Below, in pieces: positions 18,128-63,259 of a stretch of DNA of 64,000 bases. This DNA is from Candidatus Saccharimonadales bacterium (GTDB taxonomy: Bacteria > Patescibacteriota > UBA1384 > 2-12-FULL-50-11): the NCBI GenBank assembly GCA_035480235.1, contig DATIHX010000011.1, positions 146 through 64,145 of the forward strand. Reading direction: 5' to 3'. The notes beneath the pieces were generated by a model. That model had not been told where the DNA came from. It did no database searches and saw nothing but the letters and a program-made list of their open reading frames with translations. Each line of letters starts with the position of its first letter. The first letter of the stretch is position 1. Both the position numbers and the translations under genes were made by a program.

Positions 18128-18288
18128 AGCTCGGGGAAAATTAGGGGCGGCCGCTGATGGGCTCGAACCGCCCCTGGAGAGGAGAAGCGTTTAAAAAACG
18201 CTAAGGTTCCGGCCGCCTTGCTATTTAGTGGCGACTCTCTTGTGTTCGATTTAACTATACGCCTAGTTGTCAAGTTGAGTTTTTACCC

Positions 18289-18317
18289 TTGACTTTCGGC
18301 CGCAAATTAGGTAGTAT
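18289..18317 (+). promoter_or_regulatory. promoter of rnpB (TTGACT-17-TAGTAT)
   Basis: The -35 box is at 18289-18294 and the -10 box at 18312-18317, 7 nt before the P1 5' strand. Confidence 0.55.
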
Positions 18318-18446
18318 TTACCCTGAAACCAACGCAATCGCGGATTGTTTTTTAACAATTTGAGGAAAGTCCGGGCACCACAGAGACGCGCTCCAGCTAA
18401 CGGCTGGCTATCGCGAGGTAAGGGAAAGTGGCACAGAAACAAAACC

Positions 18447-18471
18447 GCCGATGCCCGGCTCAGTTAGGAGG
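18447..18471 (+). repeat. cassette junction repeat R1 (native J11/12-P12 5' strand + SD)
   Basis: GCCGATGCCCGGCTCAGTTAGGAGG. Confidence 0.85.
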
Positions 18472-18476
18472 GAAAT

Positions 18477-18740
18477 ATGAATAAGTATACGTATTCGGTC
18501 GGATTCGGCAAAGGCACTAATACCCTTGTTGACACACGGGAACATTCCCCTTTTAAGCACGGGGAGTTTGAAGCTGCAAATGACGATGAAGCCAAGGCCA
18601 AGCTAACAAATGAGCTTCTACCACCGCTCGTCGAGGCAGCGATGGGTGACGGCTACGAGTTTCGTCAGGCGCTGGACCCCTGGAACACGAGAACGAGGTC
18701 CAACCTCATTCACGACAATAGCCGACAGCGGCTCAGTTAG
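18477..18740 (+). CDS. small ORF A inside rnpB P12 (87 aa), hypothetical
   Basis: ORF track. ATG lies 5 nt after GGAGGG. Its TAG stop lies inside repeat R2. Confidence 0.45.
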   Translation: MNKYTYSVGFGKGTNTLVDTREHSPFKHGEFEAANDDEAKAKLTNELLPPLVEAAMGDGYEFRQALDPWNTRTRSNLIHDNSRQRLS

Positions 18741-18744
18741 GAGG
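18721..18744 (+). repeat. cassette junction repeat R2
   Basis: GCCGACAGCGGCTCAGTTAGGAGG. Confidence 0.85.
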
Positions 18745-18756
18745 AATGGAAAAGGA

Positions 18757-18942
18757 ATGCAAACTTTCTTTATTGAACTCACAATCACCAATGACAACAA
18801 GGAGGAGGGGGAAGCGATCGCCCTGAAAGCACTAGCGGCAGTGGCCGATCTTCCTGGCCTTGCAGGAGCGTTTGTGCGGAACGAGGGTCCAGACAAACTT
18901 AATAATGATAAAGCTGGTGCTAAGCCCATAACAGACTGTTAG
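18757..18942 (+). CDS. small ORF B inside rnpB P12 (61 aa), hypothetical
   Basis: MQTFFIELTITNDNKEEGEAIALKAL.... ATG lies 12 nt after the GGAGG of R2. It is part of track ORF 18610..18942. Confidence 0.4.
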   Translation: MQTFFIELTITNDNKEEGEAIALKALAAVADLPGLAGAFVRNEGPDKLNNDKAGAKPITDC

Positions 18943-18979
18943 CGGTTGAGCACCAGAACAAGCCCTTATGTACAAACTT

Positions 18980-19004
18980 GCCGATGACCAGCTCAGCTAG
19001 GAGG
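18980..19004 (+). repeat. cassette junction repeat R3
   Basis: GCCGATGACCAGCTCAGCTAGGAGG. Confidence 0.8.
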
Positions 19005-19010
19005 AAAAGA

Positions 19011-19259
19011 GTGCAATATTATTTCTATAAACTCGGTGGCAGCGACAACGGAGGACTGCTCACCTTTGCTCAGCAGGGCATTGCCCGATTGCCGGATGAT
19101 GTTCTCGATGACAGAGATGCCGCACGCCGAATTTGCCGAAAACTCAAAACGGAACTCGGTGAACCTCGAGTTAGAGACCGCGACATCTTCATCGTTAAGT
19201 GCGAGAATGAAGGCAATACCTTCAAGACTAACGATCTCGAAATGGCCGTGATCACGTAA
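19011..19259 (+). CDS. small ORF C inside rnpB P12 (82 aa), hypothetical
   Basis: GTG lies 6 nt after the GGAGG of R3: (V/M)QYYFYKLGGSDNGGLLTF.... It is part of track ORF 18978..19259. Confidence 0.4.
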   Translation: MQYYFYKLGGSDNGGLLTFAQQGIARLPDDVLDDRDAARRICRKLKTELGEPRVRDRDIFIVKCENEGNTFKTNDLEMAVIT

Positions 19260-19595
19260 CGAATCAACCAGGGCGAGCTTCGTCTCGCCCCTTTCTAACT
19301 GAGTCGGAACAGGTAAGGGTGAAAAGAGTGCGGTAAGAGCGCACAGCACTGCCAGCAATGGTATGTGAAGGCCAAACCCAGCGTGGTGCAAGTTGAGTGG
19401 ATCTTTATTCCAACAAGTTATTATTCCCCTAAAGGGAAAACTAGCTCCATTGTGTCTCACAATCGGAATAAAGAACTCGACGCACGAGCAGCGTTATGCT
19501 TTATAAAGCATAACGCTCCGAGTGACCGTATGTGTTTAAACGCATACGGGAATTAGATAGATGGTTGCATAAACAGAACCCGGCTTACTGGTTTC

Positions 19596-19626
19596 CGAAA
19601 AAGACTCCGCGAGGAGTTCTTTTTCG
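19596..19626 (+). terminator. terminator after rnpB
   Basis: CGAAAAAGACTCC-GCGA-GGAGTTCTTTTTCG hairpin. Confidence 0.6.
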
Positions 19627-19656
19627 TGAATCTGAACCGAAGGCGACTTTCCCAAC

Positions 19657-19680
19657 AAAAATCCCGCAAGGGATTTTTTT
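19657..19680 (+). terminator. second terminator-like hairpin
   Basis: AAAAATCCC-GCAA-GGGATTTTTTT. Confidence 0.55.
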
Positions 19681-19736
19681 GGTGAATTAGAAAACCGTAC
19701 ATAGTATATCTGTGATGTGACATATATTCTTAGTAC

Positions 19737-20432
19737 ATGATAGCCAAAAAGACCGAAAAAGAAATAGCACTGAAACTTCGCCTTGAAGGTAAAACTTACT
19801 CTGAAATTTTAAAGCTAGTAAAGGTTTCAAAGTCGTCTTTGTCGCTCTGGTTACAATCGGTTGGATTAGCACAGCCCCAAAAACAAAGAATTACCGAAAA
19901 ACGCATAGCAGCCAGGCTGAAGGCGCTTGATCGGGTGAGGCAAATACGTTCCGAAAGGACGGAAGTAGTGACCAAGAAAGCATTGAGCGAAATCCCGGCT
20001 CTAATCAATGATCCTTTTTGGGTGGCTGGCTTGATGCTTTACTGGGCAGAAGGGTCAAAGGCCAAACCCTGGGCACTAAGTGTTGGGGTTGAGTTCTCTA
20101 ATATGAACGCTGAAATGCTCCAGTTATTTTCGGCCTGGTGCCAAAAATACTTAGGAACAGTCAAGAGTGAGTTCAGCTACGAAATTTCTATTCATGAAAA
20201 TGCTGATTCAGGCATTGCAAGAGATTATTGGTCAAACGTTTTGAGTGTAAAACCGGAGGAATTTCGGGTTTACCTGAAACGACATAACCTTAGTCCGACA
20301 CGAAAAAACATCGGCGAACGGTATTTTGGAGTGATACGTATTCGTATAAATAAAAGTACAGATCTCAACAGAAGGATTGCTGCATGGACCCAAGGTGTAG
20401 TAAAATACTTAGGTCACTCCCGGGTCGTCTAA
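19737..20432 (+). CDS. hypothetical protein with an N-terminal HTH-like segment and a LAGLIDADG-like motif (possible homing-endonuclease fold)
   Basis: ORF track, 231 aa. The N-terminus KTYSEILKLVKVSKSSLSLWL is HTH-like. The central VAGLMLYWAEGSK resembles a LAGLIDADG-type block. Lies in AT-rich DNA, and its 3' end overlaps tRNA-Gln by 15 nt. The function call is weak. Confidence 0.45.
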   Translation: MIAKKTEKEIALKLRLEGKTYSEILKLVKVSKSSLSLWLQSVGLAQPQKQRITEKRIAARLKALDRVRQIRSERTEVVTKKALSEIPALINDPFWVAGLMLYWAEGSKAKPWALSVGVEFSNMNAEMLQLFSAWCQKYLGTVKSEFSYEISIHENADSGIARDYWSNVLSVKPEEFRVYLKRHNLSPTRKNIGERYFGVIRIRINKSTDLNRRIAAWTQGVVKYLGHSRVV

Positions 20433-20489
20433 TGGTAGCGACGCTGCCCTTTGGCGGCAGAGATCGGGGTTCGAGTCCCTGCCCGGGAA
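20418..20489 (+). tRNA. tRNA-Gln (UUG)
   Basis: TCCCGGGTCGTCTAATGGTAGCGACGCTGCCCTTTGGCGGCAGAGATCGGGGTTCGAGTCCCTGCCCGGGAA, with anticodon loop CTTTGGC. Confidence 0.9.
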
Positions 20490-62874: not shown

Positions 62875-63259
62875 GGGGCTGTCTTGGCTTCGACGGGAAC
62901 ATTGACACCTACATTGGCAAGCGGAAATCTCTGCCTTAGAGGATAAAATTATACGTGCAAACGCTATAAATAAAGTAAAAGCTCTAGCCGCGAACTTGTT
63001 CGCTGCTCCTGCTTTTGCGCCAGTCTACGCCTAAACCGTGTTAGACCGTCTTGAATCTTGACCCTACTAGATTTTCAAGGCGTCAAATTAGTGGGTAAGC
63101 CAGTTGTTGGCACCAACAATTAGTCGAAAATTTAGTGCTGCTTTTACCGGTATTTTGACTGTTTCAAGCCTGTAAATTAAGAAATTAATCAGCCTAAGCT
63201 TGTAGAAGATGTAGATCGTCGGTTTTCGGACCCGGGTTCAATTCCCGGCAGCTCCACCA
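62875..63259 (+). ncRNA. ssrA: tmRNA
   Basis: 5' GGGGCTG...TTCGACGGG and 3' GGACCCGGGTTCAATTCCCGGCAGCTCCACCA (tRNA-Ala-like end). Candidate tag frame GCA 62957 to TAA 63034: ANAINKVKALAANLFAAPAFAPVYA. Confidence 0.9.

Follow-up and report, generated by a model that had tools for sequence, protein, structure and literature searches.

The P12 helix of a Saccharimonadales RNase P RNA gene hosts a small operon whose reading frames differ between related alleles

We examined a stretch of 64,000 nucleotides (nt) from a Candidatus Saccharimonadales bacterium (contig DATIHX010000011.1), hereafter the window. On its + strand, at about 18325-19603, lies rnpB, the gene for the RNA of ribonuclease P (RNase P), whose P12 helix is split by an insert of ∼820 nt. 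In a permissive Rfam scan of positions 18200-19750, the RNase P RNA model RF00010 matched twice, at 18341-18531 (65.3 bits, E=3.3e-19; model positions 20-222) and at 19170-19603 (38.6 bits, E=3.7e-10), and the break between both matches is P12. Jointly, the two matches cover model positions 1-367 and delineate a type A RNA from P1 to P18, including the P4, J11/12 and J12/13 sequences; the conserved RNase P RNA sequences GAGGAAAGUCCGGGC, ACAGAAA, GGUAAGGGUGAAA and ACAGAACCCGGCUUA are all found in the gene. This agrees with a preliminary description of the window, made by reading the letters without database searches, which had recognized rnpB as the host and P12 as the site of insertion. At gathering thresholds, Rfam reported a transfer-messenger RNA (tmRNA) and nine tRNAs in the window and no RNase P RNA. 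No single RF00010 match in the window exceeds the curated gathering score (100 bits) because the insert splits the match; standard models likewise miss the rnpB of the candidate phyla radiation (CPR) (PMC8172020).

The P12 helix of this gene hosts a small operon (Table 1). Three cassettes, each formed by a direct repeat (R1, R2 or R3) and one small open reading frame (ORF A, B or C), are arranged as R1-A-R2-B-hairpin-R3-C-hairpin-3' strand, the last element being the second strand of P12. The array appears to belong to one transcription unit, judging from a single promoter-like site upstream and a single terminator-like site downstream; inside the insert, the promoter scan gave no promoter-like site on the + strand.

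Table 1. Features of rnpB and of the array in its P12 helix (window positions; aa, amino acids; SD, Shine-Dalgarno sequence)
Feature	Position	Strand	Remarks
Promoter-like site TTGACT, 17-nt spacer, TAGTAT	18289-18317	+	Promoter scan
rnpB 5' part, P1 through P11 and J11/12	18325-18454	+	Type A; RF00010 match
R1 core, P12 5' strand	18455-18472	+	Pairs with 19290-19307; holds the ORF A SD AGGAGG (18466-18471)
ORF A, 87 aa, conserved first cassette	18477-18740	+	Homologues at the matching place in L002, L003 and L126
R2	18721-18744	+	Core 18729-18744 identical to R1; last codons and TAG stop of ORF A, SD of ORF B
ORF B, 61 aa, orphan second cassette	18757-18942	+	NCBI annotation: hypothetical protein
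Imperfect hairpin with 21-nt arms over the ORF B stop	18914-18956	+	Inverted repeat, 81% complementary
R3	18972-19008	+	37-nt copy of J11/12, P12 5' strand and SD; core 18989-19004
ORF C, 82 aa, GTG start, orphan third cassette	19011-19259	+	NCBI has a 91-aa version from an upstream ATG without SD
GC-rich terminal hairpin GGGCGAG / CUCGCCC	19271-19290	+	Abuts the P12 3' strand; not flagged as a terminator by the scan
P12 3' strand, sole copy	19290-19307	+	Resembles an anti-SD (CCUUUCU), then AACUGAGUCGG
rnpB 3' part: J12/13, P13/P14, P15-P18, 3' strands of P4 and P1	19308-19603	+	RF00010 to model position 367; alignment with L002, L003 and L125
Intrinsic-terminator-like hairpin and T run after rnpB	19603-19628	+	Terminator scan

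We compared this allele with four related ones, all of which carry their array in an rnpB directly downstream of rnhB; the order uvrA, rnhB, rnpB is common to the related loci. Two cassettes are present in L002 (= L001), R1-A-R2-X-hairpin-3' strand (X, 81 aa), and in L003, R1-A-R2-Y-hairpin-3' strand (Y, 94 aa). L125 (R1-D-hairpin-3' strand; D, 94 aa) and L126 (= L127; R1-A'-hairpin-3' strand; A', 96 aa, 34% identical to A) have a single cassette and no R2. L125 was found by a clade-specific rnpB 25-mer; in pattern searches of metagenomes the first pattern had no match and the second matched L125 only. With one, two or three cassettes in different alleles, the locus is a modular array at one P12 site rather than a randomly expanded helix, as had been proposed before any relative was known.

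The 5' part of rnpB is 98-100% identical to that of the window in L002 and L003 and 89-92% in L125 and L126, and L002 has identical promoter hexamers at the matching position. The rnpB core is nearly invariant across alleles despite an RNase HII identity of 53-72% (72% between the window and L002, 53-59% in comparisons with L125 or L126). Since RNase HII is only 53-59% identical across carriers, the design must be old in this clade. From the strong conservation of both halves, we predict that the window rnpB is a functional RNase P RNA gene whose product is active on pre-tRNA. In at least ∼70 other Saccharibacteria rnpB alleles, P12 measures 6-25 nt, with a few of 40-164 nt, and in none does it contain the repeat motif, an SD or an ORF. 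Among the genome-scan matches listed, there was no clade member and none closer than 50/70 identity to the clade's rnpB 5' part. These alleles do not prove that the design is missing elsewhere.

A repeat search returned R1, R2 and R3 as a three-copy family, CGGCTCAGTTAGGAGG, at 18456, 18729 (100% identical) and 18989 (88%), matched at 16/16 positions by R1 and R2 and at 14/16 by R3, with start-to-start spacings of 273 and 260 nt. The preliminary description had located the same direct repeats (18447-18471, 18721-18744 and 18980-19004) at these distances. With up to three mismatches (<=3), the 15-mer GGCTCAGTTAGGAGG occurs six times in the window against 0.99 expected, a count reached in 0/100 shuffles; four of the six are R1, R2, R3 and, inversely, the 3' strand, and the repeat is found nowhere else in the window outside the rnpB insert. 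Every repeat closes with AGGAGG, followed 5, 12 and 6 nt later by the start codons of ORFs A (ATG), B (ATG) and C (GTG), and the final codons of ORF A, CTC AGT TAG, fall within R2. The arrangement of one small ORF behind the SD of each repeat, with the ORF A stop inside R2, had thus been read correctly. The statement that every repeat reproduces the CCGAUG of J11/12 holds for R1 and R3; R2 has CCGACA, and R1 of L002 and L003 is without the motif, which is no conserved part of the repeat. R1 and R3 are 81% identical over 37 nt (18439-18475 versus 18972-19008), and in a shuffle test R3 resembled R1 upstream of the core (p=0.01). The by-eye impression that R2 also copies J11/12 was not supported by the same test (p=0.66), and neither was classical target-site duplication, which had been put forward as one possible origin of the repeats.

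Some minor features of the repeats are recorded here. The SD, spacer and start of ORF C (18999-19014, AGGAGGAAAAGAGTGC) match J12/13-P13 (19316-19331, AGGGTGAAAAGAGTGC) at 14/16 positions; by a rough estimate, chance alone could well produce such a pair in 1.35 kb, and its location just after the P12-strand copy is curious. An ATG within the GCCGATG of R1 opens a 9-codon frame (18451-18480) whose TGA overlaps the ATG of ORF A (ATGA); it has no SD, the ATG is missing there in L002, L003 and L126, and the frame is probably meaningless. The equivalent ATG of R3 (18984) shares the frame of ORF C, and NCBI begins its 91-aa call there. Thirteen IMG/VR viral contigs (L128-L140) each contain one exact copy of GGCTCAGTTAGGAGG, which a rough estimate puts near chance for a 15-mer.

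We further investigated whether the cassettes encode proteins. Among 5.8e9 proteins, two are full-length relatives of ORF A, with 78% and 74% identity. A profile search of 1.84e9 representatives yielded one true distant relative, P0008, in which the N-terminus, SGSVRRNG, is mis-called and corresponds to an in-frame reading of the repeat; P0006 and P0007, long repetitive proteins from the same search, were treated as spurious repeat matches. At 34% identity, the L126 protein is still a clear ORF A homologue (Smith-Waterman z 15-19). Pairwise Nei-Gojobori ratios of nonsynonymous to synonymous change (dN/dS) are 0.235, 0.110 and 0.202, with dS of 0.57-1.24 and third-position changes dominating. 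This substitution pattern identifies ORF A as a selected protein-coding gene within the ribozyme gene, old in the clade. With a dN/dS of 0.11-0.24 for ORF A and with relatives that differ in their cassettes, the locus is not the invariant set of three units lacking ORF conservation that had been considered at the outset. Nor do the repeats belong to an extended, conserved P12 fold devoid of coding signal, the other possibility named there.

As judged by sequence comparison, the ORFs that follow A are lineage-specific orphans, wholly different between alleles. ORFs B and C match only themselves in protein databases (5.8e9 proteins for ORF B), and all five orphans (B, C, X, Y and D) are singleton clusters among ∼15e9 sequences. 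None of the five resembles A or another orphan by BLASTP, by shuffled Smith-Waterman alignment or with a hidden Markov model (HMM) of the ORF A family. Smith-Waterman z values between cassette proteins range from 0 to 3.8, the best being C versus Y (z=3.8) and B versus X (z=2.5), both over short patches. At the DNA level, blastn between the variable parts of the alleles gave nothing below E=0.03, and no extra copies turned up when all cassette proteins were searched by tblastn against the window and every retrieved locus. The weak paralogy seen by eye between the peptides of A, B and C therefore did not withstand BLASTP, Smith-Waterman or the HMM.

The nine cassette ORFs (four copies of ORF A, B, C, X, Y and D) all start 4-12 nt past AGGAGG and take up the whole of their cassette. 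A frame behind an SD would remain open over 61-94 codons with a probability of ∼0.05 to 0.01 per frame, calculated as (61/64)^n, and this was seen five times among the orphans. On the grounds of SD, spacing, start codon and a cassette-long open frame, we regard B, C, X, Y and D as putative genes. No significant match to A, B or C was found in Pfam, PHROGs, NCBIfam or PADLOC, including toxin, antitoxin and defence models, and the same was true of Pfam and PADLOC for X, Y and D and of Pfam for the ORF A-like protein of L126. A PDB sequence profile search gave no match, and neither did tblastn of ORF A against deposited phage genomes. A toxin-antitoxin or anti-phage defence module was rejected on the searches of PADLOC, Pfam, PHROGs and NCBIfam. 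AlphaFold2 models were of low confidence, with a predicted local distance difference test (pLDDT) score of 60.3 for A and 54.8 for C, and Foldseek on the ORF A model (pLDDT 60) returned E=0.026 at best; the models are too poor for any reliable conclusion on a common fold. None of the seven proteins has a membrane segment, and all are hydrophilic.

These comparisons bear on the possibility that the R1-ORF A unit was duplicated in tandem and then diverged in place, the ORFs being old paralogues and the repeats being kept by selection. The common layout and the similar unit length (260-273 nt) would be explained in this way, as would the copying of 37 nt of the R1 region in R3, and the low-confidence AlphaFold2 models of A and C both consist of strands, one long helix and strands. 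We nevertheless hold such duplication to be quite unlikely: the cassettes share no similarity in protein (BLASTP, Smith-Waterman z 0-3.8, ORF A-family HMM) or DNA, while ORF A orthologues stay 74-78% identical and are recognizable even at 34%. The unrelated B, X and Y of three close alleles need replacement rather than divergence.

We then considered how the array is accommodated by the ribozyme. The R1 core and the 3' strand form a duplex of 18 bp including G-U pairs (-32.6 kcal/mol); the R2 duplex would have ∼16 bp (-26.7 kcal/mol), and that of R3 is interrupted (-19.4 kcal/mol). The preliminary description had noted a single copy of the 3' strand, which extends over 19290-19307, and its pairing with R1, with R2 and less well with R3. 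This is what we find, with longer helices than first counted, 18 bp rather than 13 for R1 and ∼16 for R2. We found no support for the accompanying proposal that these are mutually exclusive functional P12 helices. In the full-length fold (1291 nt), the R1 helix has a pairing probability of ∼1.0, and forcing the R2 or R3 helix costs +13.1 or +11.2 kcal/mol, both forms being unpopulated in the ensemble. Among the five alleles, only the R1 pairing covaries, and the R2 and R3 pairings have no comparative support. Across these alleles, 98.9% of the 18x5 cells of the stem are paired, against 26-56% in slid controls. In two stem pairs both partners have changed (C-G to U-A in L126, G-C to A-U in L003), and four show a single compensating change, from G-U to G-C or the reverse. 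The other 12/18 stem pairs are invariant, and comparison of the window with L002 shows covariation in another rnpB helix. In L125, the insert has perfect 17-bp inverted ends.

The P12 3' strands of the alleles read CCUUUCU, CCUUCCU, UUUUCCU and CCUCCU. Because they resemble an anti-SD, the closed stem is expected to bury the ribosome-binding site of the first ORF: the predicted probability that the ORF A SD is unpaired is 0.00 when the RNA is complete and 0.36 when the 3' strand is missing. All five alleles have, at the equivalent position, a GC-rich hairpin that differs in sequence and ends 0-1 nt before the 3' strand. In the minimum-energy fold it abuts the distal end of the P12 stem, and this internal hairpin has no T run. 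A group I or group II intron with a homing endonuclease was rejected as an explanation of the insert, with no Rfam intron family at E<=10 in 18200-19750 and no LAGLIDADG, GIY-YIG, HNH or reverse-transcriptase domain in the array proteins.

The near invariance of the core across a deep clade goes beyond what base pairing needs, with 12/18 stem pairs never varying. This would be expected if the repeats were selected RNA modules, either initiation or processing signals or a riboregulator in which R1 to R3 compete for the 3' strand, and if the ORFs had arisen de novo in a tolerant loop. That a 16-bp R2 helix and an interrupted R3 helix with the 3' strand are possible, and that all downstream ORFs are orphans, would fit as well. 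However, the alternative pairings are 11-13 kcal/mol worse and unpopulated, an essential ribozyme would have its P12 opened at the base if the R1 pairing were broken, and R2 is missing in the single-cassette alleles. The convergent origin of an identical 13-16-mer is improbable, and the complete replacement of ORFs between close alleles would be left unexplained. We therefore consider selected RNA modules an unlikely account of the array.

Independent sequencing runs gave an identical window array over 958 nt, and 2-6 samples yielded each of L002, L126 and L125 with identical sequence (six contigs for L125), which rules out an assembly artefact. An RF00010 score below the gathering threshold and mediocre codon-usage scores of the ORFs are what a chimeric assembly, or an rnpB pseudogene with chance reading frames, would produce. 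Both are contradicted by the identity of independent assemblies, the strong conservation of both rnpB halves, the maintained P12 stem, the purifying selection on ORF A and the improbability of the open frames of the five SD-led orphans, and we give artefact or decay next to no credence.

We next asked how unrelated ORFs came to occupy the same position. The window, L002 and L003 are 75-100% identical through R2 and again from the 3' strand, and unalignable between these points. As the dS of ORF A is only 0.6-1.2, sequences under neutral decay would still be alignable; the middle segments have therefore been replaced. The second-position ORFs of these three close alleles (B, X and Y) are mutually unrelated. 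The boundaries of exchange are always the same, on the left the 13-nt core CTCAGTTAGGAGG and on the right the hairpin and the 3' strand, followed by conserved rnpB. The core is identical to the R1 of every allele and recurs where ORF A ends in L002 and L003. Unrelated ORFs thus begin at one 13-nt core and the arrays end at a common 3' strand, in line with the serial accretion at a single site that had first been suggested.

Taken together, we think it probable that the array is a coding insert in RNase P RNA that resembles the intervening sequences (IVS) of rRNA, and that its ORFs are exchanged and added by recombination anchored in rnpB and in the short repeat. Cassettes would pass between rnpB alleles, with the conserved 3' half of rnpB as the long anchor and the repeat as the short one; the repeat could serve in this way because the R1 of a donor equals the R2 of a recipient. 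Homology-facilitated illegitimate recombination, which combines a long homology with a short anchor, can be likened to the exchange proposed here. An exchange at R2 would replace the downstream cassette, and a join further downstream would add one, along with some of the J11/12 and P12 strand of the donor. The latter would explain R3, which keeps 37 nt and follows the hairpin over the ORF B stop, as fits a join downstream of a former A-B array; this hairpin may have been the terminal one of that array. Recombination between direct repeats would delete cassettes and could yield single-cassette alleles, for example L125 with D in first position.

In the folded RNA, the GC-rich hairpin would stack on the stem, such that the ribozyme sees a capped P12 while the coding RNA loops out as a giant bulge. 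ORF A would be translated mainly on the nascent transcript or after cleavage of the stem, and be shut off once P12 forms. By analogy with the IVS of rRNA, the long stem may be cut by RNase III, which would release the mRNA and leave a two-piece ribozyme.

Several points weigh against the proposed IVS-like insert with recombining ORFs. Recombination would have to work from a very short anchor of 13-16 nt, selection on RNA function could be what maintains the core, and R2 has no significant similarity to R1 beyond the core. Five distinct alleles are all that support the comparison, and none of them is a donor that carries B, C, X or Y as its first cassette. With five sequences, the covariation of the stem is weak, the observed value being reached in 36/500 shuffles. 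B, C, X, Y and D have no homologues, hence no selection estimate, and their codon-usage scores are intermediate and uninformative, as is that of the proven ORF A, which also scores low. RNase III was not found in the 64-kb window, which is a statement on the window and not on the whole genome. Translation, processing and ribozyme activity of the array-bearing rnpB are predictions.

Two kinds of mobile element could also bring ORFs to one site. Promoterless ORFs in one orientation behind a single promoter-like site, a repeated boundary sequence, and a cassette number and content that differ between alleles are all reminiscent of integrons. In a site-specific platform of this kind, the repeats would be attachment sites at which a dedicated recombinase inserts circular cassettes, and the preliminary description had spoken of an integron-like manner of insertion. 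The annotation of the neighbours with Pfam revealed no integrase or recombinase within ∼3 kb either side of the array; they encode UvrA, RNase HII, an RRM (RNA recognition motif) protein, TsaE, TsaD and LytR. A 231-aa ORF downstream of rnpB, with a weak helix-turn-helix match, is found in the window only and is missing in the other alleles. The cassettes do not each carry an attC-like imperfect palindrome: the end of cassette A falls in R2, where there is no hairpin, and the hairpins after B and after the last cassette are unrelated in sequence. Whereas integrons have IntI and attC, the cassettes here are bounded by a direct repeat of 13-16 nt that has the sequence of a ribozyme helix strand; this repeat is simply the P12 strand with an SD and is present nowhere else in the window. 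We conclude that exchange is better explained by homology than by an integron mechanism, which we regard as very improbable here.

The array could also be viewed as a non-autonomous transposable element that sits in the P12 loop, has 17-bp terminal inverted repeats (CCGGCTCAGTTAGGAGG and its complement) and carries the ORFs as passengers. The perfect inverted ends of L125 would suit such an element, and relative to the tiny P12 typical of Saccharibacteria (6-25 nt) the whole structure is an insertion. Yet domain scans found no transposase or homing endonuclease near the array, the outer ends have no target-site duplication, and there is no other copy in the window. Occupation of one site in lineages whose RNase HII is 53-59% identical points to old vertical inheritance, and any insert tolerated in a helix must have complementary ends. 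ORF A is unmatched in deposited phage genomes, and the single 15-mer matches in 13 viral contigs are near chance. A transposable element is accordingly an even fainter prospect than an integron.

A further and more tentative possibility, to which we give clearly less than even chances, is that this RNase P RNA is bifunctional. It would be at once an essential ribozyme and the mRNA, or mRNA precursor, of a small-protein operon; folding of P12 would close translation of the first gene, and the ribozyme sequence would act as a homology dock for swapping unrelated small genes. This would be a natural example of a ribozyme helix used as an anti-SD clamp and, if the stem is cleaved, of a naturally split bacterial RNase P RNA. 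A selected ORF A with exchangeable orphans would extend ORF-bearing intervening sequences from rRNA to a ribozyme. The arrangement would also explain why covariance-model annotation misses rnpB in such genomes. More generally, it points to conserved RNA genes as recombination anchors at which ultra-small CPR genomes may acquire and test small proteins.

The closest analogue appears to be the ORF-bearing intervening sequence of 23S rRNA. In Coxiella burnetii, an IVS of 428 nt in helix 45 of 23S rRNA encodes S23p and is excised by RNase III (PMC4990558), and its ORF is reported to be decaying and not expressed (PMC4990558). Both are inserts of a few hundred nt in a helix of an essential structural RNA, closed by a stem, transcribed with the host and containing an ORF, and both would have been acquired once and then inherited vertically. 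As in an IVS, the insert described here lies in a helix, has a closing stem (18 bp) and matches no intron family, a likeness in workings rather than strict membership. In contrast to Coxiella, the host is RNase P RNA and not rRNA, and the ORFs are not S23p, with no Pfam match for A, B, C, X, Y, D or the ORF A-like protein of L126. ORF A has a strong SD predicted to be masked by the stem and is under purifying selection, and there are 1-3 exchangeable ORFs, each behind a repeated leader. RNase III excision has been shown for Coxiella, whereas for the rnpB array it is suggested by analogy.

The rRNA genes of the CPR are rich in intron-like insertions that encode endonucleases, with Saccharibacteria reported as an exception in which such rRNA insertions are absent (PMC11270868). 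The shared elements are a CPR lineage and a structural RNA gene interrupted by protein-coding DNA. The rnpB insert differs in having no intron-family match (Rfam, E<=10) and no homing-endonuclease domain, and as a helix extension it needs no splicing.

The P12 helix of RNase P RNA is known to vary in length, for example through short tandem repeats in the rnpB of heterocystous cyanobacteria. In the CPR, RNase P RNAs are diverged, with helices extended or missing, and escape standard models, with no mention of a coding insert (PMC8172020). The peripheral helices of rnpB, P12 among them, tolerate large extension or loss; the extensions of diverged CPR and cyanobacterial RNAs are non-coding, whereas this one encodes proteins.

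In the orphan-module arrays of contact-dependent inhibition (CDI) and Rhs systems, and in silent-cassette systems, modules keep a short conserved upstream piece for recombination into the expressed site. Similarly, each downstream unit in rnpB opens on a short stretch copied from the conserved sequence ahead of the first unit, 37 nt of it in R3, and recombination between direct repeats would promote a downstream unit to the first position. The rnpB ORFs differ in being complete with their own starts, in bearing no toxin or immunity signature (PADLOC, Pfam) and in being flanked by a ribozyme. Dual-function RNAs such as SgrS/SgrT and RNAIII/hld, and SD-sequestering stems opened by RNase III or by co-transcriptional translation, offer another parallel. 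One transcript would be both functional RNA and mRNA, with a complementary strand masking the ribosome-binding site; in rnpB, the functional RNA is an essential catalytic ribozyme and the masking strand is its own conserved helix. In the literature, of which our coverage is incomplete, there was no report of an rnpB P12 that encodes proteins. We found no description for RNase P RNA of such an IVS-like coding insert, whose cassettes are exchangeable and whose host helix masks an SD.

The surroundings of the array contain further features. In the window, uvrA and rnhB lie upstream of rnpB, and a tRNA and the RRM-protein gene downstream; an exact match to this RRM protein was found in the same genome only. 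Between the rnpB terminator and the tRNA (20418-20489) lies the 231-aa ORF (19737-20432, +), which shares 15 nt with the tRNA. Its sole domain match is a weak one to a helix-turn-helix (HTH_23, E=3e-4), and it contains a LAGLIDADG-like stretch, WVAGLMLYWAEGSK; its best transposase match, IS630, is not significant (E=0.063). The ORF is specific to the window, absent from the corresponding interval of L001/L002, and with a GC content of 43% versus 51% for the window it looks like a separate recent insertion.

The 3' part of rnpB bears clade-specific extra hairpins. Two adjacent near-perfect palindromic hairpins (19483-19524 and 19526-19549), with the centres UUUAUAAA and UUUAAA, belong to ∼130 nt that are extra relative to RF00010 in the P15-P18 region; they are kept with sequence changes in L002 and L003 and not in L125. 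Between rnhB and rnpB, the stretch GGGGCGGCCGCTGATGGGCTCGAACCGCCCCTGGAGAGGAG... (18140-18215) is preserved in part in L002, and L126 lacks it. Rfam gave nothing for this stretch at E<=1, and it could be the rnhB terminator or a small RNA. The one-piece tmRNA (62875-63259, 150 bits) and the nine tRNA genes of the window are ordinary for a small CPR genome.

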